Position numbers and translations under genes: made by a program. From IMG/VR virus record IMGVR_UViG_2547132271_000004: DNA of 15,420 nucleotides. One strand, 5' to 3'. Shown here piece by piece: positions 1 through 14,959 of this stretch. The notes under the pieces are model-generated. The model saw only the letters and a program-made list of their open reading frames with translations. It was not told the origin of the DNA and did not search any database. Each line of letters starts with the position of its first letter. Position 1 is the stretch's first letter. The stretch is from a virus (lineage: Duplodnaviria; Heunggongvirae; Uroviricota; Caudoviricetes).

Positions 1-1
1 G

Positions 2-454
2 ACGCCGTTTATCGATTTTGGCCCACGTATTGGCGATATCCCGGATGCATTACTGGCGCGGATCATGGCCTGTCGACCTTTAGTGTCACTCAATCGTCAA
101 GAGGCTGAGATTGCCGCCGAACGTTTTGCTTTATCCGCAGAGATAACAACACTAGGCAAGCAATGGCAGGAGAAATTTGCCGCGCCATTGATCGTTCGTC
201 TGGATAAAGAAGGTGCCTGGTATTTCAGCGACAACGCATCAGGCTGTGTTCCGGCATTTCCAACGCAAGTCGTTGATACGATTGGTGCAGGTGATAGCCA
301 TGCAGGTGGCGTACTTGCCGGGCTGGCATCCGGTCTGTCAATGGCAGATGCAGTGTTGCTGGGTAATGCGGTGGCGTCGTGGGTTGTCGGGCATCGGGGC
401 GGTGATTGCGCGCCAACGCGCGAGGAACTACTCCTCGCACACAAAAACATATAG
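2..454 (+). CDS. yegV: PfkB-family sugar/nucleoside kinase, C-terminal part (5' end lies outside the window)
   Basis: Open frame runs from the window edge to TAG at 452-454. The conserved PfkB C-terminal motif DTIGAGDSHAGGVLAGL is present. Gene neighbourhood (yegW, yegX, thiD, thiM) matches E. coli. The symbol is assigned from synteny and recall, not from a search. Confidence 0.75.
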   Translation, partial: TPFIDFGPRIGDIPDALLARIMACRPLVSLNRQEAEIAAERFALSAEITTLGKQWQEKFAAPLIVRLDKEGAWYFSDNASGCVPAFPTQVVDTIGAGDSHAGGVLAGLASGLSMADAVLLGNAVASWVVGHRGGDCAPTREELLLAHKNI

Positions 455-1174
455 ATCGCTGCGACAGTGACTGATGCTGTATTCAATTGGCCGTTGCTGT
501 TGGTCAAGCGCCACTTGCTTGATCACCAGCACCGGTATTTTGCTATCTAACTGAATATGTGACTGAAACTCGGCATCCGGCATTCGGGCGCTAACGCGGG
601 AACGGGTACGCTTTGGAAAAATATGCTGACTGCGAAAGTAGTCATAAAGAGAAATACCGATGGCATCAACATCATGAATTAAATGCGCAGGAACCCACGA
701 CTCCTCAATCGATACCGCTTCTTCATCCACGTAGCGAATGCGCTTAAGCAAGAAGACATCACTTCCTGCTTCAACCGCCAGCTGCTGCGCGACGTCTTCG
801 GGGCACTCTACCACTCGCTTGTTAACCCACAGCGTGTCGGGCTTTTTACCGCGCAACACCACCTGCTGCGAAAAGCCTCGCGCTTCTTTTAACGAGTATT
901 CGAAAATGTTGTTGATCTGCGTGCCGTAACCACGCGAACGCGTCACCACACCCTCTTCTTCCAGCGCCTGCATCGCCTTGCGCACCGTAATGCGCGAAAC
1001 GCCGGTTAACTGACTTAAATCGCGTTCGCCGGGCAAAATATTGCCATGCTCCAGCACCCCGCTGCGCACGGCATTTTTTACCGTTTCGGCAAACTTAATA
1101 TAAAGCGGCGTGTTGTCAGCCGCTAAAATACGTTCGTTCAGTTGGGCGATAAGCTGGGTATGCGCTTGTTCCAT
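428..1174 (-). CDS. yegW: GntR-family transcriptional regulator (N-terminal wHTH, C-terminal UTRA-like effector domain)
   Basis: 248-aa ORF. N-terminal helix-turn-helix segment LSQLTGVSRITVRKAMQALEEEGVV is typical of GntR/HutC regulators. It converges on and overlaps the yegV 3' end by 27 bp. Confidence 0.85.
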   Translation of the reverse strand: MEQAHTQLIAQLNERILAADNTPLYIKFAETVKNAVRSGVLEHGNILPGERDLSQLTGVSRITVRKAMQALEEEGVVTRSRGYGTQINNIFEYSLKEARGFSQQVVLRGKKPDTLWVNKRVVECPEDVAQQLAVEAGSDVFLLKRIRYVDEEAVSIEESWVPAHLIHDVDAIGISLYDYFRSQHIFPKRTRSRVSARMPDAEFQSHIQLDSKIPVLVIKQVALDQQQRPIEYSISHCRSDLYVFVCEE

Positions 1175-1225
1175 TTGTCTTTTTCCTGCCGGGGAGTCTG
1201 GTGGGAGTATATCACTGCTTCTTAT

Positions 1226-2053
1226 TTAAGGCGTTTCTTTAATCCCATGAACGAATGCCTGCAACTCCTCCACCGTGCCATTAAACACATTAAAATCTAC
1301 CGGACCATTAATGCCATCCACCTGTCCACGGTCGGAATGCTGCCAGAAACGCCAGGCTATTCCGTCATTGTCCGGACGACGTTGATAGTAGTGAGCCACC
1401 CACCACGGATATTCATTGAAATATCCCGCCAGATTGGTGTGATAAAAAACGGCTCCGGAGTAAATAATCGGCTTTTTCCCCGTACTTTTTTCGACCATTT
1501 TTAGCCACTGACTGACCCGCTTGCGTAATTCTTTTGCCGATAATTTTCCCCGCTCTTCTACGTCCAGCACCGCAGGAAAATCATCTTGTGTAAAATCCAC
1601 CGTTTGCAGAAATAATCGCGCCTGAACAGGCGCTGCTATCGACGGAGAAAAATAATGATATGCCCCACGCAGCAGGCCATTTTCGCGGCTTTGACGCCAG
1701 TTACGCGAAAAATAGGGATCCACCAGCTTTTCGCCTTCCGTCGCCTTAATAAAGGCAAATTGTAAGCGGATACCGTTATCGCGCATTTTTGCCACCCGCT
1801 GCCAGTCGATCCGCTCCTGCCAGCGTGAAACATCTATTCCGTGAATGGTATAACTGGCAGGAATGCGAATAGCAAAAGATTTGACCGGGCGATAACCGTA
1901 AAAGTGAATGTAGTCTTTGATCTGAATTGCTGTGGAATAGAAAAAATTCACCGTCTGGCGGGGATAAATCGCAACGATGGAAATTAGCGCCAGAGCGCAT
2001 AACAAAGCGGTGAATTTTTTGCGACTGACGATTTTTAGCTGCATTAGTTTCAT
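1226..2053 (-). CDS. yegX: Glycoside hydrolase family 25 (lysozyme-like) protein with N-terminal signal/anchor
   Basis: 275-aa ORF with a hydrophobic N-terminus (FTALLCALALISIVAI) and a GH25-like core. Position between yegW and thiD matches E. coli. The true start may be the internal Met at about 2044. Confidence 0.75.
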   Translation of the reverse strand: MKLMQLKIVSRKKFTALLCALALISIVAIYPRQTVNFFYSTAIQIKDYIHFYGYRPVKSFAIRIPASYTIHGIDVSRWQERIDWQRVAKMRDNGIRLQFAFIKATEGEKLVDPYFSRNWRQSRENGLLRGAYHYFSPSIAAPVQARLFLQTVDFTQDDFPAVLDVEERGKLSAKELRKRVSQWLKMVEKSTGKKPIIYSGAVFYHTNLAGYFNEYPWWVAHYYQRRPDNDGIAWRFWQHSDRGQVDGINGPVDFNVFNGTVEELQAFVHGIKETP

Positions 2054-2109
2054 CCCTGAATTTCAGCGCAAAAAAGCTGACAATAACCAAAGCAGCTATA
2101 GTACGGTGC

Positions 2110-2910
2110 TCACCACCAGGCGTGGAAGTGGTGAACCGGACCAATTCCGTGGCCGACTTCCAGTGAGTCTGCCTGGGCTAACGCTGCCGACAGCCAGCTT
2201 TTTGCTTCCTGAACGGTATCAGCCCAGTTTGTATGACGCGGGCGTAATGCCGCCAGTGCCGCAGAGAGCGTACAACCGGTGCCGTGGGTGTTTTTGGTCA
2301 TAATACGCGGCGCAGCAAAGCGTTGTTCGCCGTCACAGGTAAACAGCCAGTCCGGGCTTTGTTCATCATCCAGATGACCGCCTTTCATCAGCACAGCGCC
2401 ACAGCCCATCGCCAATAATTCACGTCCCTGCTCCAGCATTTCCTGTTCATTACGCGCGTGTGGCGCATCGAGCAAAGCGGCTGCTTCCGGCAAGTTCGGA
2501 GTAATTAATGAAACCTGTGGCAATAATCGACTACGCAGCGTGGCTACCGCCGAAGGTGAAAGCAGAGGGTCGCCGCTTTTCGCCAGCATGACGGTATCCA
2601 GCACCACGTTTTGGATCTGATAACGTTGCAGCCGTTCTGCTACCGCTTCAACGATATCGGTTTCTGCCAACATGCCGATTTTGGTGGTGTCGATTCGCAC
2701 ATCGCTGAACACCGAATCAAGCTGTGCGGCGACAAAATCAGGCTCAATGCGATACACCGACTGTACGCCACGGGTATTTTGCGCCACCAGCGCGGTGATT
2801 ACCGAACAGCCGTAAGCGCCAAGTGCCGAAAAAGTTTTAAGATCGGCCTGAATCCCCGCGCCGCCGCTCGGGTCAGTACCGGCTATCGTCAGAGCGTTAA
2901 TCCGTTTCAT
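2110..2910 (-). CDS. thiD: Hydroxymethylpyrimidine / phosphomethylpyrimidine kinase
   Basis: 266-aa ORF with N-terminus [31 protein letters not shown], characteristic of ThiD (PfkB superfamily). Its start overlaps the thiM stop by 4 nt (ATGA). Confidence 0.9.
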
Positions 2911-3695
2911 GCCTGCACCTCCTGCGTCAGCTGCCAGAGCGCATCAAGGAAATGTGGGACGAAACTGCCCGGCCCTTTGCTTCTGATGACTGCGCGTTCT
3001 CCCGCTTGTTTCATCCAGTGACAGGCAGATGCGACATTTTTCAACTGATCGCCTGGTAATGCACAACAGGCAGCGACAACTGCCGATAATGCGCAGCCAG
3101 TTCCTACTACTCTGGTCATTAACAGGTCACCGCCATGAATGCCAACGGTGCGACAACCATCGGTAACATAATCCACGTCGCCAGTGACCACGACGATTGC
3201 GCCGGTTTCATTTGCCAGAGTTTGTGCGGCGGGCAACGCGTTGGCGGCGGCGTCAGTAGTATCTACACCACGACCACCATTGGCAATGCCTGCTAATGCC
3301 ATGATTTCCGAAGCATTACCGCGTATGGCGCTTGGTTTATGAGACAAGAGTTCCAGACAAAAACGGCGGCGATAATCGAGTGCACCAACCGCTACTGGAT
3401 CAAGCGTCCAGGGCGTTTGGGAGCGTTTTGCCTGTTCTATGGCGGCACGCATCGCCTGTGCGCGTGGCTGCGTCAATGTACCAACGTTAATCAGCAAGGC
3501 ACTGGCAATTGCCGCAAATTGACTGGCCTCTTCGGTTTCGATAACCATCGCTGGCGATGCGCCGAGCGCCAGTAAAGTATTGGCAGTAAAGGTTTGCACC
3601 ACATCATTGGTCATGCAATGCACAAGGGGGGAATATTGGTGAAAAAGGTGTAACACGGGCGCAGATTGCGCCGGACTCAGCAGGTCGACTTGCAT
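2907..3695 (-). CDS. thiM: Hydroxyethylthiazole kinase
   Basis: 262-aa ORF beginning [32 protein letters not shown], typical of ThiM. A Shine-Dalgarno AGGAG lies upstream on the minus strand. Confidence 0.9.
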
Positions 3696-3790
3696 AATTT
3701 GCTCCTGCCATAACGTGAAGAAGCAATGACCTGGCGGTCTGTGACTTCCCTACGCTGGCATTATCCAGATCAGGTGATACGGGTATTTCT
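3696..3790 (-). promoter_or_regulatory. thiM leader with the 3' portion of the TPP (thi-box) riboswitch and expression platform; the 5' half of the aptamer appears to be missing
   Basis: Minus-strand sequence AGAAAUACCCGUAUCACCUGAUCUGGAUAAUGCCAGCGUAGGGAAGUCAC followed by the SD and AUG matches the E. coli thiM thi-box as recalled. Upstream of it (plus 3791 onward) the sequence becomes AT-rich and unrelated to the expected P2/P3 and CUGAGA segment. Confidence 0.7.
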
Positions 3791-3856
3791 TACTAATTCC
3801 TGTTACTAGTTGATAATAAATAAGTTTTTAAGAATGCATAAATTAAAAACCTCAAA

Positions 3857-3880
3857 ACTGACCACACAACTGACCACACA
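3857..3880. repeat. Perfect tandem duplication of the 12-mer ACTGACCACACA
   Basis: Read directly: ACTGACCACACA at 3857-3868 and again at 3869-3880, immediately upstream of a CGAACAA-rich stretch. Confidence 0.9.
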
Positions 3881-4260
3881 TTTCGTTGAAGCTCTACGAA
3901 CAACGACGAACAATAACAAACAAAAGGGAAATTTGCTGGGGGTTTTGCGTAACCGTTATCATTTTCCGGCTATCCGTCATGAAGCTGGTGGATGATCTGC
4001 GTGGTGATTTCCACCATTCAGAGCAGGGGCGGTCATCATGACCATGCCATAACAAAAACCCCATATTCGTGGGTTTTCTGTGTTGTGGCTATTCTGCCGT
4101 TGCCGTGCTGGTGGATATTTCCGGTATGTGGCTCACCATATCGGCATCAGGCCCACCAGCGTGAAGCGTTTTTCATTTTTCGCGGGTATAAAAAATCGAT
4201 GGGGCTGGCAGTCCGGAAGACGTCAGGGTACAGAGATTTGACCCGCCCCTCCCTGTGCAT

Positions 4261-4468
4261 GAGCACAATAAGTAACCGAAGGCGGAATTCCGCCCTCGGT
4301 GCTCACATATGAGAAACGATATTTCTTACACCGATACCCTTTATTTGGGTATCGCGAGTAAGCCCCAAAATCTGGGTGTTACTCTTACTACCCAAACTAC
4401 GGGTAGTTTCATAGTCGAGTTGCAGATCTGCAACTCGCCACCAGTTGCTAAGTGCATTTTTGCACTTT
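4261..4468. other. Cluster of five consecutive, sequence-distinct stem-loops in non-coding DNA downstream of the packaging operon
   Basis: Inverted repeats read directly: CCGAAGGCGG/CCGCCCTCGG around a GAATTC centre (4277-4300); CGATACCC-N7-GGGTATCG (4332-4354); ACTACCC-N7-GGGTAGT (4387-4407); perfect palindrome CGAGTTGCAGATCTGCAACTCG (4416-4437); AAGTGCA-TTTTT-TGCACTT (4450-4468). Confidence 0.6.
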
Positions 4469-4484
4469 CGGTAATATCAACCAG

Positions 4485-4775
4485 TTACCGCCGTAAGTGC
4501 TCCGGCTTCCTCCACTGGTAAGTATTTTTCGCGCTCTCCCTCCGTTGTTGAGAACGGCGACGGTATGCCAGCAACTCAAGAACTCTGGTTCGTATGTTGC
4601 GCATATCCACGCCGTTAAGCTCAATACCGTCACGGCGCATTACCTCAGCCACCACACGCGCGTAATTTTCGGCTATCACGCTGTCCGGCTGTGTAGCCTG
4701 TTCGTCAGGCTGCTGACTGATTCCGGTAATGCGGCGAATTATTTTTAGTAGATCAGTTTCAGTCATTCTCGTCAT
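4485..4775 (-). CDS. Hypothetical small basic protein, translationally coupled to TerL
   Basis: 96-aa ORF whose ATG overlaps the TerL stop (ATGA). The C-terminus is Arg-rich. No family recognised. Confidence 0.5.
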   Translation of the reverse strand: MTRMTETDLLKIIRRITGISQQPDEQATQPDSVIAENYARVVAEVMRRDGIELNGVDMRNIRTRVLELLAYRRRSQQRRESAKNTYQWRKPEHLRR

Positions 4776-6433
4776 ACCCCATCAAATGCCGCAAGTCGCT
4801 CTTTCTGGCTGTCGCTCATATCAAATGCAAATTCCTCATGCTCAGCCTGGAATGTGCCAAACGCCATCAGCGCCGCAACGCTCGGGTCTATCTTATTGGA
4901 TGATTTTTTCTTGTTCGGCTTGATATTGGCGTTCGCGTCACTCTGCATCACAACATTACTCATTGACCAGGCCAGCACCGGATCACCACGATGAACAATC
5001 ACCTTCCGGTTAACAAAAACTTCGAACGATTTCGCCGCCGGACTAAAACGAAGGTACGTTTGCGGGAACGGCTCCACCTCAAATCCCGCTCCCTGTAGCT
5101 GCGTCCTCAGGTGCGTGGCGTTCCATGTATCGAAACCCACCAGCCTGATATTGAAATTCTCTGCATCCGCCATGATGTCATCACGGATACGGTCATAATC
5201 AATGCAGTCACCCGGTGTTGTGCGTATCCAGCCCGCCTTTGCCCACTGGCGATAGATGGCGCGGTTTTTATTGGCAGGGTTCTGTAGCTGAAATTCCGGT
5301 AGATAGTGACGTGAAACCAGCATAATCTTTTTACCGACCGGAAAGGCATAGCACACGCTGGAAATATCGCTGGTTGATGATAAGTCCAGCCCCGCATAGC
5401 ACTCCTGCCCGTATAAATCCGCCTCAGCGAACGTTCCGGCGCACTCCGCCCATGCACCGTTACCCATCCACGGCGTAGCCCCCTGACACCAGATATTGAA
5501 TCGCTTGGTGAGCATTTCCACCCACTGCGACGGAATACCCCGCGCTTTCTGGATGGTTGAGGCAAGTTTTTCACGATCGACGGAAACATCGATATTGGGA
5601 TTCGCCTTTATCCACATCGCCGGATCGTCAACCTCGCTTTCATCATCCAGCTCGTAAATCAGTACGAACATGGATTCGTTCACCTCTTCACCATCCAGTA
5701 TCTGGCAGCAATAGTCGTAGTGTTGTTTACAGGCTGAAACAACGTTGCTCCCCGATGTGGTGATGGCAAATAACAGCCCCTCCGGACGCGCCCCCATCCC
5801 CAGTTCAAGTGCGGAATAAACCCCGTTGTCTGGGTGCAGGTGATATTCATCCACAATGGCAAGACTCGGGTTTGTCCCCTCAATGGTTGCCGCTTTTGCT
5901 GCCAGTGGCTTTAACAGGCTGTTGGTTTTCGGGTGTATCACCTTGTGCGCCTGAATATTTACCCGCTTTCGTAACGGTCGGGATAAAAGGCACATCTGAC
6001 GCGCATCATCAAACACGATCCGCGCCTGATCACGACTCACGGCGGCGGTGTAAATATCCTGCTGCCCGTTTTCCATAACCAGAAACCAGTTAGCCAGGAT
6101 AGCGGCGACCGTGGATTTGGCATTTTTTCGCGGTACTTCAATGAATGCGCTGGTGTATTTGCGCCGTCCGGTGGCCTTAACCTTAAATCCCAGGATGCAG
6201 GCAAAGGCGAACTGCTGCCACGGCTCAAGTTCAATGGGGCTACCGCGCATTGCGCCTTTTACGTGCGGGCACACCCGGGAAAAGGCAATAAACCGCTCCA
6301 CGACCTCCGGATCGAACGTGTAAAGGGAGTTTTCAAGGTCAGAAAAATACCGTTTAACAGCCTGTTTCAGTCGTTTACAGGCCGTAATTTTGCCGTTTTT
6401 TACGCCTTCTGCGTACTCATGCCAGGCGGTCAA
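4772..6433 (-). CDS. terL: Terminase large subunit
   Basis: 553-aa ORF with an N-terminal ATPase region (Walker A-like VPRKNAKST) and a C-terminal nuclease-like region. It overlaps the TerS 3' end. Confidence 0.9.
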   Translation of the reverse strand: MTAWHEYAEGVKNGKITACKRLKQAVKRYFSDLENSLYTFDPEVVERFIAFSRVCPHVKGAMRGSPIELEPWQQFAFACILGFKVKATGRRKYTSAFIEVPRKNAKSTVAAILANWFLVMENGQQDIYTAAVSRDQARIVFDDARQMCLLSRPLRKRVNIQAHKVIHPKTNSLLKPLAAKAATIEGTNPSLAIVDEYHLHPDNGVYSALELGMGARPEGLLFAITTSGSNVVSACKQHYDYCCQILDGEEVNESMFVLIYELDDESEVDDPAMWIKANPNIDVSVDREKLASTIQKARGIPSQWVEMLTKRFNIWCQGATPWMGNGAWAECAGTFAEADLYGQECYAGLDLSSTSDISSVCYAFPVGKKIMLVSRHYLPEFQLQNPANKNRAIYRQWAKAGWIRTTPGDCIDYDRIRDDIMADAENFNIRLVGFDTWNATHLRTQLQGAGFEVEPFPQTYLRFSPAAKSFEVFVNRKVIVHRGDPVLAWSMSNVVMQSDANANIKPNKKKSSNKIDPSVAALMAFGTFQAEHEEFAFDMSDSQKERLAAFDGV

Positions 6434-6773
6434 GTTCGTCCTCTTCCTCTGTTTCCGGTGGATTTCTGCGACGGCTTACCGGGTCAAAACCCAGCAAAGA
6501 AGCCATTTTGATCATTATTCTTTCTGCGTCAGCCTTTGCGCTCAGTGCGGGGTTTCTGCTCTCGCTGCCCTGACTGTTAACAATGCTGAACCCGCGCGTC
6601 GCAAGGTCTTCGACGGCTTTGCGGTATATAGAGTAGTTAACGCAATACAGTTCCAGATTGCTCCAGTCGGCGGGGGTAAGGTCTTCCCGCCCGGAAAGCT
6701 GGCGCGATTTTTCCTTCCACTGCCTGACCGCGATTTCATCCAGGTAAGCGGGGGCTTTTGGTGGTCTTGCCAT
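6417..6773 (-). CDS. terS: Terminase small subunit (P27-family-like)
   Basis: Product MARPPKAPAYLDEIAVRQWKEKSRQL...LELYCVNYSIYRKA...LGFDPVSRRR resembles P27-type TerS. The ORF track extends to 6914, but that extension translates the structured candidate cos region, so the internal Met at 6773 is preferred. Confidence 0.75.
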   Translation of the reverse strand: MARPPKAPAYLDEIAVRQWKEKSRQLSGREDLTPADWSNLELYCVNYSIYRKAVEDLATRGFSIVNSQGSESRNPALSAKADAERIMIKMASLLGFDPVSRRRNPPETEEEDELDRLA

Positions 6774-7061
6774 GTTCTTTTTTCGCCCAATTATTTTCAA
6801 AAAAATTACCGTGCACAAAAATTTGAGGGGGCGGTCGGTGTCCGGCAGGGACGGTTTCGTCCTGAAAACCACCCCCACCCCCTCTGACGGCCTCACCAGC
6901 GATTGCGAAAACATTCCATGACCTCGCGGTCACGGTCGGTTAATCGCTTCGCTGTGGTGCGTTTTGTGCGCCCTGTCCTGTTGGCTTTGTGCTCTGTCTC
7001 CTGTGTCTTCCATGTGTCACGCTGCCTTATCAGTCCACGTATCAGCCTGGTTTGCTCCTGT
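6774..7061. other. Candidate cos / packaging recognition region between HNH and terS
   Basis: 288-bp gap in the position where HK97-like phages carry cos. Contains a nested imperfect palindrome (GAGGGGGCGG ... CCACCCCCTC enclosing GGACG-GTTT-CGTCC, about 6825-6884) and a T/G-skewed tract with recurring CTGTC and TGTGTC motifs (about 6956-7030). Confidence 0.4.
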
Positions 7062-7502
7062 TCAGTCATCATCGCCATACATCCAGTCGTTACGGTGTGC
7101 CGCCCGTTCTTCCTGCTCGCGATACATGCCCGCTTTACGGTTTGCTTTCGTGGCTGGATCTTCCCGTGTCGTCTTACGGTTGTGGCACGTCTGGCACAAT
7201 GCCTGGTGATTCCACTCAGGCCAGAAGAGAACATCACCGCCGCCATTGATGGGAATGATGTGATCCACCACAAGAGCTGGCGTATAAATCCCCTTAGCCA
7301 GACAACGCACGCATAACGGGTTTTTGCTCAGGTACAGGGCGCGGTATTTGTCCCACTGTCGGGAATACCCGCGCGCGCGGCGGTGTCCCCGTCTGGCATC
7401 CTCTGCACGCCATGCAGCCCGCCTGTGCTCTTCACACTTGCCGGACTTCACGCGCTTATTACAGCCAGGCTCAGTGCATCGCCTTAATGGTTGCCACGGC
7501 AT
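7062..7502 (-). CDS. HNH endonuclease (packaging-associated)
   Basis: 146-aa ORF with Cys-rich zinc-binding motifs and the HNH core (CTEPGC, CVRC, DHIIP, HQALCQTCHNRK). Its ATG overlaps the connector stop. Confidence 0.9.
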   Translation of the reverse strand: MPWQPLRRCTEPGCNKRVKSGKCEEHRRAAWRAEDARRGHRRARGYSRQWDKYRALYLSKNPLCVRCLAKGIYTPALVVDHIIPINGGGDVLFWPEWNHQALCQTCHNRKTTREDPATKANRKAGMYREQEERAAHRNDWMYGDDD

Positions 7503-7804
7503 CAGTACACCCCTACGTCACGATAAACTGACCAGAGCGCAGAAATAGCCATAGGCAGTTCCGAGTGCTCCACTGGTGAAACCGCTTCCCGGTTCTCGTA
7601 CAGGAAAGCGATGTACATCAGGCAACCAACACGCATTGCCGGGGTAAATTCCAGCCCGTCTTCAAAACGTTTCCCGATATGCTTCTGGCAGGCTTCCAGC
7701 GCCGCATCGGTATACATTTTCAGAAGTTCGCCTTCACCGGATAAATCATCATCAAGTCGAAGATGTGCCCTGACTTCATCAGGTGTAATTCTGGCTTCAC
7801 TCAT
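7502..7804 (-). CDS. Head-tail connector / adaptor protein (gp6-like)
   Basis: 100-aa product MSEARITPDEVRAHLRLDDD... resembles gp6-like head-tail connectors. Start chosen at the internal Met with RBS GGGAGAAAAG; the longer ORF-track N-terminus would overlap the portal. Confidence 0.65.
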   Translation of the reverse strand: MSEARITPDEVRAHLRLDDDLSGEGELLKMYTDAALEACQKHIGKRFEDGLEFTPAMRVGCLMYIAFLYENREAVSPVEHSELPMAISALWSVYRDVGVY

Positions 7805-9011
7805 CTTTTCTCCCTTTAATTTCCACAGTCTGTTTCCATGCCTGGCTGAACTCATCACCACCTTCACGCGGCGGCATACCCTCACGCTCACGGGCTTCGT
7901 TCGGATTCATGATCCCGTTCTTAATCCCTTTCTCATACGTGGCATAACGTTCGGTGGGTGTGGCGCGTAATAAATCGGCTGAATCAAACTCAACCAGATA
8001 ACGGGTACCAGGTACGGGAGAAGCCACCAGCAAAGCGGCCTTGATTTGCTGTTCGAAGTTCGCTAGCCACGGGCGCATTGTCATGGTCAGAAACGCGCGG
8101 CTTGCCTCGCTGAAATTGCTGTAGGTGCTGTTGCTGTATTCCTGCAGAAAAATAGGCGATACGTTGAACATGCGGGCGATGTCTTCAATGGAGAAGCGAC
8201 GGGAGGCCAGCCATTCCGCATCCTGGTTACTCATTCCCAGTTGCCTGTAATCCATGCCCCCTTCAAGGATTGGCGTTTTTCCGGCATTTTTCGCCCCCTT
8301 GTAGCGTTCCAGAGCATCCAATGCCTGTTTACCTTTCACGCCGTCCAGCCATTCGCCTGACGTGATAATCCCTGCCGCCATCATGCCATCTTTCATAATG
8401 CTGGCTCCGTGACGCTGTTGAGCAAGGCCAAGCCCCAGCGCCTCACGGCAAATCGTGACGGGGGAACGCCCCAGAAAGCCATCATCCGAGGCATAGCGGA
8501 GATGCAAAACTTCTTCCTGTAAATACGTGCGCACCGTTCCTGTACAGGGTTCGGTGATGGTATAGCGGTATTTGTGTGCGCCTGTGCGTTCCGGTACAAC
8601 ACACCCCGGCGCATAAGGATGAAGTGATTTTGGCTGCCCGTCCTGCCCCCACTCAATAACCGCATAGGCGTTACCGTTCAGCAGGCAGTGACGCATCATT
8701 GTGCGTTTAAACTGGTAAGGTGTCTGGCACGAATTAGGCTGCTCATTCAGCAGAATATCTACCGGGTGACTGTCCAGCCATTCCCGCGCCTCCCTGCCCT
8801 TGTCATTACGTACCAGATACAGATAACACGGCATCGTGGCCACCGCCTCAGCGATGACAGAAACCGCATTCATCACTGCAGGCAATGATTCAGCCGTCCC
8901 GGCAGAAACATATTCTCCGGATCCGGTATTCGGTACGCCGGACAGCGCCAGAAAATCATCAATGGACAGGTTACGCTGCTCGCTTTTTTTACGACTAAAA
9001 GGCCACCACAT
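7797..9011 (-). CDS. Portal protein (HK97 family)
   Basis: About 404 aa from the internal Met (MWWPFSRKK...), which directly follows the protease stop. HK97-type portal signatures seen (GKTPILEGGMDYRQLG, FNVSPIFL). Confidence 0.85.
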   Translation of the reverse strand: MWWPFSRKKSEQRNLSIDDFLALSGVPNTGSGEYVSAGTAESLPAVMNAVSVIAEAVATMPCYLYLVRNDKGREAREWLDSHPVDILLNEQPNSCQTPYQFKRTMMRHCLLNGNAYAVIEWGQDGQPKSLHPYAPGCVVPERTGAHKYRYTITEPCTGTVRTYLQEEVLHLRYASDDGFLGRSPVTICREALGLGLAQQRHGASIMKDGMMAAGIITSGEWLDGVKGKQALDALERYKGAKNAGKTPILEGGMDYRQLGMSNQDAEWLASRRFSIEDIARMFNVSPIFLQEYSNSTYSNFSEASRAFLTMTMRPWLANFEQQIKAALLVASPVPGTRYLVEFDSADLLRATPTERYATYEKGIKNGIMNPNEAREREGMPPREGGDEFSQAWKQTVEIKGRKDE

Positions 9012-9012
9012 A

Positions 9013-9573
9013 TCACAACCCCGCCAGCTCAGACCAGCGATGACGATTATTTCCTGTCGGACGTAATTCAGGGTGCTGTGCAAACAACGAACGGTGGGCA
9101 ATCTCCACGCCAGATTCTGGATAAGCAGGCATCGACGTTATTGTGATTTCACGGAGTTCAGCGGCGGTTACGGTACGCAGATACGGTTTTTGCGCGATAC
9201 TCCACTCCTCGCATAATGCGCGAAAACCAAAGCTCATTCCTGTAATGTCGCCACGCTCCACCAGCGTAAGCACATCTTTTCCAAGCTGGGTATCCGGCGG
9301 TGTCAGTTCAAAACGTAACCCGGTGTTATCCTCAGTCAGTACCAGAGTGCCGGATTTGGTGCGCCCCAGCAGTTGGGTATAGTCATGCTCATACAGGCAG
9401 CGCACATCATTACCCGTCGCCAGATAGTCAGCAAAAGCCCCCGGCGTGAACTGTTCGCGGAATTCGTCCCAGATAATTTCTGAAAGGCTGTTCCAGCGAA
9501 CGGCATACCCCACCAGCTTTTTATTGCTGGCGGTCAGTTCAGATGTGCGGATTTCAAAATCGGTGTTTTTCAT
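9013..9573 (-). CDS. Prohead maturation protease (HK97 family)
   Basis: 186-aa ORF with HK97 protease-like segments (YEHDYTQLLGRT, GMSFGF, ITSMPAYPESG). Confidence 0.85.
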   Translation of the reverse strand: MKNTDFEIRTSELTASNKKLVGYAVRWNSLSEIIWDEFREQFTPGAFADYLATGNDVRCLYEHDYTQLLGRTKSGTLVLTEDNTGLRFELTPPDTQLGKDVLTLVERGDITGMSFGFRALCEEWSIAQKPYLRTVTAAELREITITSMPAYPESGVEIAHRSLFAQHPELRPTGNNRHRWSELAGL

Positions 9574-9627: not shown

Positions 9628-10797
9628 CTAGCCAGCTTTCATTTCCAGAATTTTGATGGCGTTTGAATCCACCACACCACCGCCCAGATATTTATCCGTG
9701 TGGACCTTGTAGAATCCGGGTTCAGTAATGTTGTCCGGTCGGGTGCGAATCCCTGTTACATGATCAACGATGAAATAACCACGACTGAAATCGCCAACCG
9801 CTAGCGGTGCTTTTCCTGCGCCGATGTCCGGCATGGACTCCAGGCAGTAAACAGGACGACCAAGCAACATATCCGGCGCACCTTCTTTAAGGCTGTCGCG
9901 CCAGATATAATCGCCGTTCTCATTTTTCAGCTTCTGTAGTGTCCCTGCCGTGCCCGAGTTCATCACCCAGACGGCATTTTTGCGGTATTTCGCTTTCAGC
10001 TTGTAGAGAATGTCGATCAGTTCGTCCGCTGTAATGGCGGTTCCACTTGCCGCTACTATTTTTTCAATGGTGCCAAAAGCGCGGGTTTTGTCACTGGTCG
10101 CCGCACGGGTGTAAGCCATGAAGCCTTTCGGCTTGCCGTTACCGTCGCCATTAACAAAATCATCCTCTTCGGTGCTGGCGAACGTGTCGGCAATTTCGGA
10201 GGATAACCAGCCCAGAATATCCACCTCTGAAAAATCCAGGATTTCCTGCGTGGTTTTCGGGTAGGCGTAGATCGGATTCAACTTGATGGTTACGCGTTCA
10301 ATTTTCGGGGTGTTGGTTTCACTGCGTGCGCTGCCTTCTGTGCCTCGTCCTACAGTTGCGCCGCCAGTGGAAACCAGTTTCTGAAACTCATTTGATTTTG
10401 CGGTCTTCACGGTCGCGATCACGCGCATAACACTGTCATCCTGTAGCTGGCGCATGACTTCGCGATCAAGCTCAGGAATTACGGTATATCCGCCATCCCT
10501 GCCGCTGTCAGTGCTGGTGGACAGTGATCGCACATCTCCGGTTACGATGTAGTTACGCAATTCATCAGATGATAATTTCTGGATGCCCGTTCCTGGCTTG
10601 CTGCGTTCTTCATCAGCCACAGACTCGAGGCGGGAAATTTCTGTGTCGAGGGCATCAGCTTTTGCACGCAGTTCATCAAACTGTTTGCCTTCTTCAGCGT
10701 TCAGACTACGGTTTTCACTGTCGGCTTTTTCCAGCAGGGATCGCATCTGGTTTTTCAGGGCGTTTTTTTGCTGGCGGAGTTCGATTAATTTCTTCAT
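9628..10797 (-). CDS. Major capsid protein (HK97 fold) with N-terminal coiled-coil delta/scaffold domain
   Basis: 389-aa ORF. The first ~100 aa are a charged coiled-coil (LRQQKNALKNQMRSLLEKADSE...), followed by an HK97-like capsid core. Confidence 0.9.
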   Translation of the reverse strand: MKKLIELRQQKNALKNQMRSLLEKADSENRSLNAEEGKQFDELRAKADALDTEISRLESVADEERSKPGTGIQKLSSDELRNYIVTGDVRSLSTSTDSGRDGGYTVIPELDREVMRQLQDDSVMRVIATVKTAKSNEFQKLVSTGGATVGRGTEGSARSETNTPKIERVTIKLNPIYAYPKTTQEILDFSEVDILGWLSSEIADTFASTEEDDFVNGDGNGKPKGFMAYTRAATSDKTRAFGTIEKIVAASGTAITADELIDILYKLKAKYRKNAVWVMNSGTAGTLQKLKNENGDYIWRDSLKEGAPDMLLGRPVYCLESMPDIGAGKAPLAVGDFSRGYFIVDHVTGIRTRPDNITEPGFYKVHTDKYLGGGVVDSNAIKILEMKAG

Positions 10798-11083
10798 GAA
10801 GGTTTTCTCGTATTGGTTAAGATTCAGGACGTGAAACCAACACGGGGGGAGCGCCGCCCGACACTCTCGGCATCTCGCAGATCAACCCGGCATCGCGCAG
10901 GGGGTCAGGCGGCATTGTGGCGGCTCACGTCTGAGTGCCACGCTCCAACATATACATAAAAATCAGTATGTAAACACCTGTCAGTCAGACCGAACAACCA
11001 CGAAAGAACACGAACAAATAATTTACAAAAGAAGTAAACCATGGCCTATTATTGCTGTCTCTGACTACAACAAAGGACGCATC
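10798..11083. promoter_or_regulatory. Divergent control region between the capsid operon (minus) and the plus-strand cargo gene
   Basis: 286-bp gap with a GC-rich segment (10840-10940), an inverted repeat TACATA-N8-TATGTA (10953-10972), CGAACAA repeats (10991-11017), and a weak sigma70-like TTTACA ... TATTAT (11022-11052) upstream of the 11084 ATG. Confidence 0.4.
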
Positions 11084-11590
11084 ATGAATTTAAGCGCAAT
11101 GGTATACCCTGATACTTTCATAATTAATGGCGAATCATTCAGAGGTAAAAGAAACGCAAAAGAAAACAAGGTATTAATTCCATATACAAATGAACCGGAA
11201 GTAACTATTGGTCAACACATTATCCAGCGTGTCGGTAAAAACGAGATAAATCTAAAAATTATAGATATGAAGTTGCTTCCCAATGTAACCCGCAGACAGG
11301 GAACCAATCATCAAAATATGTTGACTCTCTATATTGAAAATATCACGGGAAATGAACATATGACGCCAACTAAAAGTAATACATTTAACATTGGTTCAAT
11401 TAGTGGTGATCAAGTGCAGATAGGTGAGCATAACCATATGCTGGTAAACATCAGCATCACTGAACTGGTTGAAAAAGTCGCTAAATCGGGGGATGTACAA
11501 GCCAAATCAGTATTAAAGCAGTTACTGGAAAACAGTACCGTTGCCAGCATTGTTGGGGCTGGCGCAAGTGCCCTAATAGGCTTACTGTAA
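11084..11590 (+). CDS. Hypothetical AT-rich cargo protein with C-terminal hydrophobic Gly/Ala-rich segment; function unknown
   Basis: 168-aa ORF with RBS AGGA before the ATG and its own terminator. It is the only plus-strand gene in the island and is visibly AT-rich relative to flanking genes (not computed). C-terminus STVASIVGAGASALIGLL is hydrophobic. No family recognised. Confidence 0.7.
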   Translation: MNLSAMVYPDTFIINGESFRGKRNAKENKVLIPYTNEPEVTIGQHIIQRVGKNEINLKIIDMKLLPNVTRRQGTNHQNMLTLYIENITGNEHMTPTKSNTFNIGSISGDQVQIGEHNHMLVNISITELVEKVAKSGDVQAKSVLKQLLENSTVASIVGAGASALIGLL

Positions 11591-11627: not shown

Positions 11628-11922
11628 ACCGTTTCACGGGATCTCGCATTCTGCGCCTTATTTTCCACAGATATTCGATCATCGCTTCCACCTGCTCACG
11701 GTTGGTTGCGAAAATTTCCCCGGTCAGTGAGCTACGCAGAAAATCATGATGATCCACAACAAACAACGCATCGGAAGAAAGCAGACGGCGATATTTTTTT
11801 GCTGTCATGGTTTCCAGATCATCAAAATCATGAAACTTTTTATGTTGCTGGACTTCTTCAAATGTCACTGGAATGTCCCCTCTGTTGTCGCTAAAACGGT
11901 ATGTTGTCCCCGTACGGATCAT
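11626..11922 (-). CDS. Hypothetical protein
   Basis: 98-aa ORF ending at the bidirectional terminator. It overlaps the SSB 3' end by 32 nt, so the real start may be internal. No family recognised. Confidence 0.45.
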   Translation of the reverse strand: MIRTGTTYRFSDNRGDIPVTFEEVQQHKKFHDFDDLETMTAKKYRRLLSSDALFVVDHHDFLRSSLTGEIFATNREQVEAMIEYLWKIRRRMRDPVKR

Positions 11923-12316
11923 CGTGCTGACCCGTCTGCTGTTTTGCCCTGTTCAGTGCGTCAGTGGCCTGCCCCTGCTGGCCTTTTTTGCCGCCCGGTC
12001 GCGCTGTTCGCGCACTGATCACGCTGTCTGCGATAACCTGCCAGCCCTGCCGCGTTTCGCCGTTCTGGCCTGTCCACTGGCTTACCTGCATGTTACCCGC
12101 CACGCTCACCAGTTCGCCTTTGTGGTGTTTTGCCAGTGCGTCGGCCTGTCTGCCAAACGCCAGGACGGATAACCACATCATCGCCGTTCCGTCATCTGCC
12201 TGGCTGCACGGAAGGGGGACCGCCATACTAGCCATCGTCATTTGTGTACCCTTGCTGGTGGTCTTTAACTGCGGGTCAGCCACCAGCCGCCCGTAAGCCG
12301 CTATCTGTGCTGTCAT
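11891..12316 (-). CDS. Single-stranded DNA-binding protein (SSB-like OB fold) with SSB-type C-terminal tip
   Basis: 141-aa product aligns by eye to the E. coli SSB OB core (MWLSVLAFGRQADALAKHHKGELVSVAGNMQVSQWTGQNGETRQ vs [44 protein letters not shown]). It has a Gly/Gln-rich linker and ends DDPYGDNIPF, like the host SSB tip DDDIPF. Confidence 0.75.
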   Translation of the reverse strand: MTAQIAAYGRLVADPQLKTTSKGTQMTMASMAVPLPCSQADDGTAMMWLSVLAFGRQADALAKHHKGELVSVAGNMQVSQWTGQNGETRQGWQVIADSVISARTARPGGKKGQQGQATDALNRAKQQTGQHDDPYGDNIPF

Positions 12317-12845: not shown

Positions 12846-14663
12846 TTAATTTTTGCTATCGTCATTAGTGACCGATACACATGATGGCATCCAGTCTTCT
12901 GATTCCTCCGTCAGTGTCACGTTTGAACGAAAACCGTGCTTCGTTTTCCGTTTCATATACTCCCTGCCATATTCCGCCATTGCCCCCGGCATATCTTTAC
13001 CGAAGCGCGTCAGTGTTACAGGTTTACCAAACCCATGTGCCCTCATATAAGCCAGATAGGCATGATAGAGATACCTGCGTGGGCTGAATGGCACAATTTC
13101 AGCATTACCCACTAACAGGCCATCACACATTACCGACGCCATGAGATAGCCGCAGAAGTCCACCAGCGAATCCCCCTCTCGCTTTATCGCCAGTGCTTCT
13201 TCAGATTTCTGCTGCTCATATAACAGGCGTCTGGCTTCGTCCTGGTCAGCAAACCGTGTAAGCAGATGGCGAATCACTACCGCCAGCTCACCTTCTATTT
13301 TTTCCGCCAGCATTGGATCGCGTTCGTTCTCCGGTACAACTTCCGAAAAATTGAATATCACCCGACGACGTGAGATCCCCCCGCTGCGGTCACTGAATGA
13401 CATGGCGTTATTGTTAACCGCCAGCACTACTGCCGGAATACGCGTTGAGTAGGGGGCTTTGTGTTTCGGGTCAATTGCCACCTTGTCACCGCCTGTAATA
13501 GCCTTAATCCCTGCCCCATCACCAGCGTAGCGGGTCATATCCGGCATGATAATCAGCGAAAAGCCAACCACTAACGCGCGTTCCCTTGCATCTTCCAGCG
13601 CCTTCATGCTTGCCGATACTGTGTTGGCCTTACCCGCCAGCATGGTGCAAATCTCCGCCATCACGCTTTTACCACTTCCCCCTGGACCTGTTACCTCAAT
13701 GAATAACTGCCAGTCGTACCGGTTCGCCAGCACCATGAATAATGCAGCCAGTACGCGATCCGCCTTGCGGTCATTCTCAGCCACCGAACGGCGTAACCAC
13801 TTCCAGAAATTCGGCGCATGTGTTGCCAGCGTTTCCCCCTCTGCTGGTGGGCTGAAAGGTAATTCACTGGCAATTAACAACCAGTCGTTTTTGTTATGCT
13901 CCCGAAAATTACCTGTTCTGGTATCAAATACCCCGTTACTGAATCCAATCAGGTTACGGGCTGTATTCCCCATTACAGGCAAACTTAACTTCATGGTATC
14001 GACCGCCGATTTAATGGCGTTCTGCGAATAGCTGATCTCCGCATCAATGAAAATCTGTGCCATAGCTCGCTGTAATTCTTTATCCTGTACTGGCTCCCAT
14101 ACAACGCCGTTGTAATGGTGAACAGTGTCAGAGTCAGCATGAATCGCCAGTTCACCGCCATAATGTGCCAGGAGAACTTCGCCGCGTTGACTTGCTCCCA
14201 TCTGGTTAAGCGCCAGTGATGAAGCGTTATCGTCTTTTACCCGCTCTTTTTTCTTTACAGGCAGTTCAACTACCTTTTTCTTTTCCGCCTGCTCTGCCCG
14301 TTCACGTTCCAGATATTCGCGCCAGTTCTCCCGTTTCTGGCTGTGCATTCCTTCAGGGTAATAATCAGCATCCCTGACACCTGCCACTGCCAGTTTCTGC
14401 CCGATGGTATTAACAAGCCCCGGACGCAATAACCCCGCCTGATAGAGACGCACGCGATAGCGTCCGTCCGGTACGATTTGCAGGTTGTCCAGTTCGGCAA
14501 GTTGTTGCTCTCCAAGCCAGACAGGTGGCACGTTATCGCCAGCCAGTCGCCCGTCCTGTTCCTGCCACTGTTTCGCATGTGCCCACGCATCACTACCCGC
14601 AAAAATGATGACTTCCGTCATTTTGTCACGCGGCTGGTGTTTTAAATTTGGCGCTTTTTTCAT
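12846..14663 (-). CDS. Primase-helicase / replication initiator (P4-alpha / D5-type C-terminal P-loop NTPase)
   Basis: About 605 aa from MKKAPNLK (ATGA overlap with the upstream gene; RBS GGAGAG). Walker A VTGPGGSGKS and Walker B-like LIIMPDM, with a D5_N/primase-C-like central region. Confidence 0.85.
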   Translation of the reverse strand: MKKAPNLKHQPRDKMTEVIIFAGSDAWAHAKQWQEQDGRLAGDNVPPVWLGEQQLAELDNLQIVPDGRYRVRLYQAGLLRPGLVNTIGQKLAVAGVRDADYYPEGMHSQKRENWREYLERERAEQAEKKKVVELPVKKKERVKDDNASSLALNQMGASQRGEVLLAHYGGELAIHADSDTVHHYNGVVWEPVQDKELQRAMAQIFIDAEISYSQNAIKSAVDTMKLSLPVMGNTARNLIGFSNGVFDTRTGNFREHNKNDWLLIASELPFSPPAEGETLATHAPNFWKWLRRSVAENDRKADRVLAALFMVLANRYDWQLFIEVTGPGGSGKSVMAEICTMLAGKANTVSASMKALEDARERALVVGFSLIIMPDMTRYAGDGAGIKAITGGDKVAIDPKHKAPYSTRIPAVVLAVNNNAMSFSDRSGGISRRRVIFNFSEVVPENERDPMLAEKIEGELAVVIRHLLTRFADQDEARRLLYEQQKSEEALAIKREGDSLVDFCGYLMASVMCDGLLVGNAEIVPFSPRRYLYHAYLAYMRAHGFGKPVTLTRFGKDMPGAMAEYGREYMKRKTKHGFRSNVTLTEESEDWMPSCVSVTNDDSKN

Positions 14664-14959
14664 TTCTGCTCTCTCCACGCGGCAATCATGTTTTTTAGTT
14701 CCTGTAGTTTTTTATCAACATCCATACATGACACATGGTTATTTCTGGAAAGCGGGATTTCCCGACTGAATCTGCTAATAAAGATCTCCACGTTCAGCGA
14801 ACTAAGAAATGAATAGCCATCACGGATAAAATACACACGGTCAAACATCAGTTCTTTTACCGTTACTCTGTTACCGTTCTTATCCAGATAAATAGCGCCG
14901 GGGATAATTTGGGGGTGTGCATAACCGCTGGCAGTCAAGCCAGATAAATACGTTCTCAT
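14660..14959 (-). CDS. Hypothetical protein (AT-rich cassette gene B)
   Basis: 99-aa ORF with RBS GGGGA upstream. Its stop overlaps the primase ATG. Visibly AT-rich. No family recognised. Confidence 0.55.
   Translation of the reverse strand: MRTYLSGLTASGYAHPQIIPGAIYLDKNGNRVTVKELMFDRVYFIRDGYSFLSSLNVEIFISRFSREIPLSRNNHVSCMDVDKKLQELKNMIAAWREQK

Follow-up and report, generated by a model that had tools for sequence, protein, structure and literature searches.

The described packaging sites closest to the one analysed here are those of phage HK97 and of the phages SfI and SfV, and the closest described elements are the capsid-forming PICIs (cf-PICIs). In HK97, the cut falls between the last and the first base of the genome record and leaves 10-nt 3' overhangs; the minimal TerS site spans +15 to +29 (CTAACCCGATTTTTT), where recognition goes through the G:C pair at 21 and the A/T tract at 24-29 is essential (PMC11331095), and cos cleavage is stimulated by the HNH protein gp74 (PMC9410871). 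Run-off sequencing of SfI particle DNA revealed a 10-nt gap, 5'-TGCCCGCCCC-3', in a cos that differs from that of SfV by one base (PMC3636060). The cf-PICIs package their own DNA via hnh-terS-terL with cohesive ends, and two of them, EcCIEDL933 and KpCIDSM30104, are induced by helper phages and combine their own small capsids with helper tails (bioRxiv 10.1101/2022.09.08.507074; 10.1101/2025.02.11.637232). The literature that we searched does not give the cos sequence or the cut of cf-PICIs.

The window, which is the whole 15,420-nt stretch of DNA that we analysed (IMG/VR record IMGVR_UViG_2547132271_000004), carries an E. coli cf-PICI on its minus strand, with the gene order capsid, protease, portal, connector, HNH, small ORF, cos, terS, terL. 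Pfam profiles identified, in a mostly minus-strand region, the major capsid protein (9628-10797), an HK97-type prohead protease (9013-9573), the portal (7797-9101), and a gp6-like connector (7502-7891). They also identified, all on the minus strand, the HNH endonuclease—the accessory nuclease of the packaging module—at 7062-7502 (HNH, E=8.8e-10), the 118-aa P27/Terminase_4 small terminase TerS at 6417-6773 (PF05119, E=1.6e-23), and the large terminase TerL, with ATPase and nuclease, at 4772-6433 (TerL_ATPase, E=4e-26; TerL_nuclease, E=3e-52). A D5-type primase (12846-14678) and an SSB (11891-12316) complete the Pfam assignments. The counterpart of the HNH gene in E. coli SMS-3-5 is labelled HNH endonuclease by PGAP, and the ATG of terS is the start common to all relatives. 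In SMS-3-5 the island extends over ~14.5 kb from an integrase beside rcnR to a small ORF past terL beside thiM, and no tail or lysis genes are annotated in it, either there or in the window. Both the order of the genes and the lack of tail and lysis functions agree with a cf-PICI, an island of ~10-18 kb that has integrase, regulation, and replication genes beside its capsid-to-terL module. The segment 6600-7200 occurs with 100% identity in several E. coli chromosomes, and sequences similar to it are present in at least 500 of 5,426 complete genomes.

Some other parts of the window are worth describing. Positions 1-3695 are chromosomal (yegV, yegW, yegX, thiD, and thiM, by identity with SMS-3-5), and the island junction lies somewhere within 3695-4485. 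The last gene of the island before this thiM-side junction is a 96-aa ORF on the minus strand (4485-4775), which overlaps the terL stop and matches phrog_1561, a family of unknown function (E=3e-52). Since the cos points to the thiM flank, in-situ packaging of an unexcised island would enter thiM and thiD. An AT-rich patch at 10950-11590 (GC 0.34-0.38) contains a 168-aa ORF on the opposite strand (11084-11590, plus) that lacks a Pfam match; located between the replication and capsid modules, it resembles an accessory or cargo gene. The HNH-cos-terS region is found in up to five copies in some E. coli genomes, so several related islands can share one cell.

The initial annotation had proposed a cos site in the 288 bp between the HNH gene and terS. 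The Pfam calls confirm both flanking genes, and the location holds: we consider it very likely that 6791-6885 is the cos of this cf-PICI, which is integrated between rcnR and thiM in E. coli, and that it is used by the island's own TerS, TerL, and HNH. Its core is homologous to the mapped cos sites of HK97 and SfI/SfV, and the ends of a related cf-PICI contig coincide with it. The size was overestimated, since the putative functional site covers ~95 nt rather than 288 nt.

We aligned the DNA upstream of terS in 71 loci encoding TerS relatives (62-87% identical) from Enterobacterales, Aeromonas, Orbales, and Pasteurellales. When read along the coding strand, every locus follows one plan: a G-box (GGGGTGGGGG), an A-rich stretch with GAC, ~20 variable bases, and a C-rich box, then CTCAAATTTTT, ACGCACGG(T/C)(G/A), a run of seven T, GAAAATAA, and ~20 bases including the RBS before the ATG. 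The mean pairwise identity is 0.90 at +1 to +11 (51 unique loci) and 0.85 at +12 to +37, against 0.47 in the spacer (-35 to -11), with +1 being the first base after the predicted cut. For the core as a whole (-10 to +37), it is 0.84, versus 0.53 at the third codon positions of terS, and in pairs of enteric and Gilliamella/Haemophilus loci the two values are 0.85 and 0.375. Conservation of the core thus exceeds that of the adjoining gene, and the site is under strong purifying selection.

In the window, these elements lie on the minus strand as follows. The G-box, GGGGGTGGGGGTGG, is at 6869-6882 (-55 to -42) and forms an imperfect inverted repeat with the predicted cohesive end. The variable spacer (6838-6868) ends with AC at 6838-6839 (-12/-11), directly 5' of the overhang, and this dinucleotide is invariant in nine of nine aligned sites. 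The predicted first bases of the packaged left end, CTCAAATTTTT, occupy 6817-6827 (+1 to +11). They are followed by the predicted TerS recognition site, GTGCACGGTAATTTTTTT, a C/G element and then a T7 tract, at 6799-6816 (+12 to +29), and by the near-invariant end of the core, GAAAATAA, at 6791-6798 (+30 to +37). The window departs from the consensus of the core at a few bases (GTGCACGGTAA versus ACGCACGGTGA).

A few loci have unusual layouts. In Xenorhabdus hominickii, the G-box is enlarged to a tandem array of five GGGGTA units, located ~60-95 nt upstream of the cut. Two Rodentibacter loci (L058 and L059) have ~100 nt of other sequence before terS; a cos-like block is found further upstream in L059, and none is visible in the 150 nt examined in L058. 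One contig starting 132 nt before terS (L133) was considered as a genome end and rejected as an ordinary assembly break.

The same plan is found in phages. Searches with tblastn gave TerS relatives in SfV, SfII, SfIV, ST64B, phi644-2, and EPP-1, at ~35-39% identity. We joined the record ends of HK97, SfV, ST64B, phi644-2, and EPP-1 end to end and aligned them with the window at the cut. The window and these five phages share a G-box whose 3' edge is at -41 to -45 and which a variable spacer separates from AC and a 10-nt C-rich box. There follow (C/G)YYNAATTT, a C/G element, and an A/T tract, with the RBS and terS coming last. The 10-nt gap mapped in SfI is the C-box, and the phi644-2 and EPP-1 records are interrupted at the equivalent point of the alignment. 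The cut precedes AATTT by 5 nt in these two records and in the SfI-mapped site, as read in SfV and ST64B; in HK97 it precedes it by 6 nt, i.e., one base off. In the SfI-mapped site, phi644-2, EPP-1, and HK97 alike, it follows a 10-nt C-rich box preceded by AC. The start of the SfV record was also considered as the cut; that junction falls in the spacer and seemed contrary to HK97, and we set it aside in favour of the SfI-mapped overhang, which is the C-box.

By alignment to these mapped relatives, the predicted cohesive end of the window is a 10-nt 3' overhang at 6828-6837, CGACCGCCCC on the minus strand and GGGGCGGTCG on the plus strand. It lines up with the SfI-mapped gap and, in HK97, phi644-2, and EPP-1, with the final 10 nt of the record. 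The minus strand would be nicked between 6828 and 6827, the latter being +1, and the plus strand between 6837 and 6838, so that the minus strand reads ...ACAC CGACCGCCCC | CTCAAATTTTTGTGCACGGTAATTTTTTTGAAAATAA around the predicted cut. The exact position is transferred from the relatives, and the 3' polarity is deduced from SfI, HK97, and the 10 nt missing from the contig described below. The bases -10 to -1 are polymorphic among cf-PICIs: CACCCGCCCC occurs in 83 copies, CGACCGCCTC in 50, CGACCGCCCC (the window type) in 49, CGCCCGCCCC in 32, and CGCCTGCCCC in 25. This polymorphism could limit annealing between different islands.

The genome ends of related elements are informative on the position of the cut. 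IMG/VR contig 3300022664_000095 (15,518 bp) has the full cf-PICI gene set, with TerS and TerL 86% and 82% identical to those of the window. It starts exactly at +1 (CTCAAATTTTTACGCACGG, opening with the motif CTCAAATTTTT) and ends at -11 (...GGGGTGGGGGAGGTTTTCAGGACAAAACCCAAGCCGCAAGGCAC, finishing with CAAGGCAC). Integrated relatives read ...CAAGGCAC CACCCGCCCC CTCAAATTT across the junction, so the contig lacks exactly the 10-nt box, as identified from these relatives. Removal of 3' overhangs in the course of library preparation would give this pattern, and both ends would hardly fall on the predicted bases by chance. It is the only contig found with both ends on the site: the 39 matches of the metagenome scan were all internal, as were the 13 matches to the window-type left end in IMG/VR.

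A second element concerns particle DNA. The 16.5-kb record of vB_KppS-Ant (LR881103) is the cf-PICI KpCIDSM30104; it was assembled from particles of K. pneumoniae DSM 30104 with a Nextera XT library, and its source paper describes it as a filamentous ssDNA phage (PMC8006926). Compared with the integrated copy of the same strain, the record lacks 68 nt, 31 before and 37 after the predicted cut. Tagmentation libraries under-sample the ends of linear DNA, and a gap of this kind is therefore as expected; it is also possible that the assembly failed at the G/C runs. The support established at the level of sequence for a cos at 6791-6885 thus comprises the homology of the site, its purifying selection, and the ends of relatives' genomes at these positions.

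The inverted repeat that drew attention to the region can be placed within this layout. Its outer arms (6825-6834 and 6875-6884) are 10 nt long and 90% complementary. In the predicted fold, an outer stem of 10 bp and a middle one of 4 bp enclose an inner hairpin, GGACG-GTTT-CGTCC (6849-6862). The fold energy of the DNA is -18.3 kcal/mol (z = -2.0, with 6 of 200 shuffles as stable); taken alone, the fold is only modestly beyond chance. The nested palindrome described in the initial annotation is thus present, but its perfect inner hairpin lies in the variable spacer (47% identity) and is not seen in relatives. The C-rich arm is the predicted cohesive end, and the G-rich arm is the conserved G-box, whose distance from the cut is fixed: its 3' edge is at -41 to -45 in the five phages aligned above, and 266 of the 290 cf-PICI copies where a G-box was found have it at -43 to -45. 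The two boxes can pair in 43 of the 49 unique relatives, and, the arms being runs of G or C, this may reflect either a structure or two protein sites. We found no account of the role of the G-box in the literature searched.

Such a repeat might act mainly as an RNA hairpin that serves as an intrinsic terminator or attenuator where the head-gene/HNH transcript meets terS-terL, in which case its conservation would reflect transcriptional control. The RNA indeed folds with -38.2 kcal/mol into a 10-bp G/C stem followed by a U-run, and this is the pairing kept in most relatives. Yet the z-score of this fold is only about -1.9, the loop is ~40 nt long, and the U-run begins 5 nt past the stem, whereas intrinsic terminators have a short G+C stem-loop with an immediate U-run. 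The promoter and terminator scan did not call the G-box/C-box structure, its two short terminator-like hairpins being off the conserved features, and an Rfam scan of 6600-7200 (E<=1) gave no match. Transcriptional control would also leave unexplained the near-invariance of the 37 nt past the stem and the genome ends at the C-box. We regard it as an unlikely main function, although a side role in termination or attenuation alongside cos is possible.

The cos interpretation leaves much of the interval between the HNH gene and terS to another feature. The initial annotation took all 288 bp as structured non-coding DNA, in which TerS could bind CTGTC and TGTGTC repeats on the HNH side and the ORFs would be artefacts. 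The truly non-coding part is restricted to 6774-6892 (119 nt). The remainder belongs to a minus-strand ORF (6893-7078) that overlaps the HNH stop, is annotated by PGAP, and encodes a small basic protein of 61 aa and unknown function. This protein matches phrog_3173 over its full length (E=6.3e-27) and has no Pfam family. We collected 44 unique orthologues from E. coli, Klebsiella, Enterobacter, Kosakonia, Kluyvera, Serratia, Rahnella, Erwinia, and others. Across this set, the median dN/dS is 0.34, third codon positions are 1.6 times as variable as positions 1 and 2, the frame is kept, and indels are in frame. The orthologues have in common an N-terminal motif, M(T/N)E(Q/K/R)(E/D), and a C-terminal one, R(D/E)R(E/D).x.E(C/A)FRNR. 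By these sequence signatures, the ORF is a real conserved gene, separate from cos; its position beside the site suggests an accessory role in packaging. The gene is missing in relatives from Xenorhabdus, Photorhabdus, Haemophilus, and Gilliamella, where HNH stops ~130-150 nt before terS; those from Xenorhabdus, Haemophilus, and Gilliamella retain the cos core.

The skewed tract with its motifs does exist. Positions 6893-7061 are T-rich and A-poor (AT skew -0.48), with CTGTC at 6973 and 6994, TGTGTC at 7002 and 7013, and a 19-nt direct repeat of 79% identity (6963-6981 and 6986-7004). The enrichment of the motifs is weak (shuffle P = 0.06 and 0.004), and the repeats are confined to a 7-codon stretch that only the orthologues of the E. 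coli/Shigella type possess. Because the tract is coding and relatives that keep the cos core lack the whole segment, it must be dispensable for the site and is not an array of TerS-binding repeats. In HK97, moreover, TerS binds on the side of the cut that faces terS. A non-coding region with TerS repeats on the HNH side is therefore very improbable. Equally hard to credit is a role of the conserved block as promoter or operator of terS-terL—as its AT-rich sequence with TTGAAA directly upstream of terS could suggest—or as a pac site for headful packaging. Neither a usable -10 element nor adequate spacing precedes the RBS and ATG, there is no room for a leader, and the only promoter-like match, a weak one, is on the opposite strand. 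HK97 employs this type of module, with HNH and terminase, in cos packaging, and the discrete ends of a relative, 10 nt from each other, contradict headful packaging.

Under the cos interpretation, the TerS site of the island likely lies on the terS side of the cut, in a region that the initial annotation did not single out. The C/G element and T7 tract at 6799-6813 resemble the proven HK97 site at +15 to +29, and binding of TerS to 6799-6816 is suggested by this similarity of the DNA and by the position relative to HK97. The TerS proteins themselves show no detectable similarity (BLASTP E=4, no Pfam hit), and a search of PDB sequences with the window TerS returned only noise. The binding mode may thus differ despite the similar DNA element, and for this reason we do not claim the arginine-clamp mechanism of HK97 for the window TerS.

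We propose the following scenario. After induction, the island's TerS, TerL, and HNH would act on concatemeric island DNA. By analogy with HK97, TerS would most likely bind the C/G element and T7 tract, and TerL, aided by HNH, would introduce two nicks 10 nt apart at the C-rich box (minus strand, 6828/6827; plus strand, 6837/6838), leaving CGACCGCCCC as a 10-nt 3' overhang. Which nuclease would cut which strand can be surmised from HK97 and SfI. The DNA would then be pumped into the small capsid encoded by the island, the terS/terL side entering first, until a second cut at the next cos. In a more tentative extension of this scenario, the cos might be bipartite, the G-box acting as a second docking site that is essential to HNH or TerL, or as a cruciform arm that positions the staggered nicks, with the tract downstream acting as a discriminator. 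Here the hypothesis is that T7, found in cf-PICIs and HK97, versus A5, found in the SfV group, may separate the packaging of the satellite from that of the helper. Such a bipartite arrangement may not yet have been described for HK97-like systems. A discriminator of this kind could let a cf-PICI package only itself beside a helper with similar machinery. If so, one satellite packaging system would be interchangeable across orders, given how nearly identical the core is in Enterobacterales, Pasteurellales, Orbales, and Aeromonas.

The cf-PICIs move from one bacterial species to another in their own capsids, into which they package no DNA but their own, and cos gives this specificity. A cut and an overhang predicted to the base, together with a probable TerS site, provide a target for cos-plasmid packaging tests. 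The predicted cos may also be useful for engineering satellite-based DNA delivery and for recognising the ends of cf-PICI genomes in viromes. The local annotation is corrected as well, with a small conserved gene between HNH and cos.

Among the known systems, the cf-PICIs EcCIEDL933 and KpCIDSM30104 share gene order and island size with the island of the window. The EDL933-associated sequence and KpCIDSM30104 have the same cos core and differ in the predicted 10-nt overhang, which is CGCCCGCCCC in the former and CACCCGCCCC in the latter, versus CGACCGCCCC in the window. In SfV/SfI, ST64B, EPP-1 (Edwardsiella), and phi644-2 (Burkholderia), the cos is likewise between HNH and terS, TerS is of the same P27/Terminase_4 Pfam family, and the DNA has the G-box, AC, the 10-nt C-rich overhang, and AATTT in register. 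These phages differ from the cf-PICIs downstream of the cut (ATACCCGCGAAAAATGAAATTTAA, with an A5 tract, versus GTGCACGGTAATTTTTTTGAAAATAA, with a T7 tract) and in their TerS, which is ~45 residues longer at the N-terminus (164 versus 118 aa). Their genomes are 37-48 kb, whereas the carrier here is a 15-kb satellite lacking tail genes. HK97 has the C-rich box as its 10-nt 3' overhang and a G-run ending at -43, as in the plan of the window, but ~320 nt separate its HNH gene from the cut, unlike in the window. With the HNH-terS-terL gene order and a core homologous to mapped cos sites, the site of the window is very likely an HK97/SfV-type cos carried by a satellite, and its biology follows the known HK97/SfV pattern, hence with little surprise.
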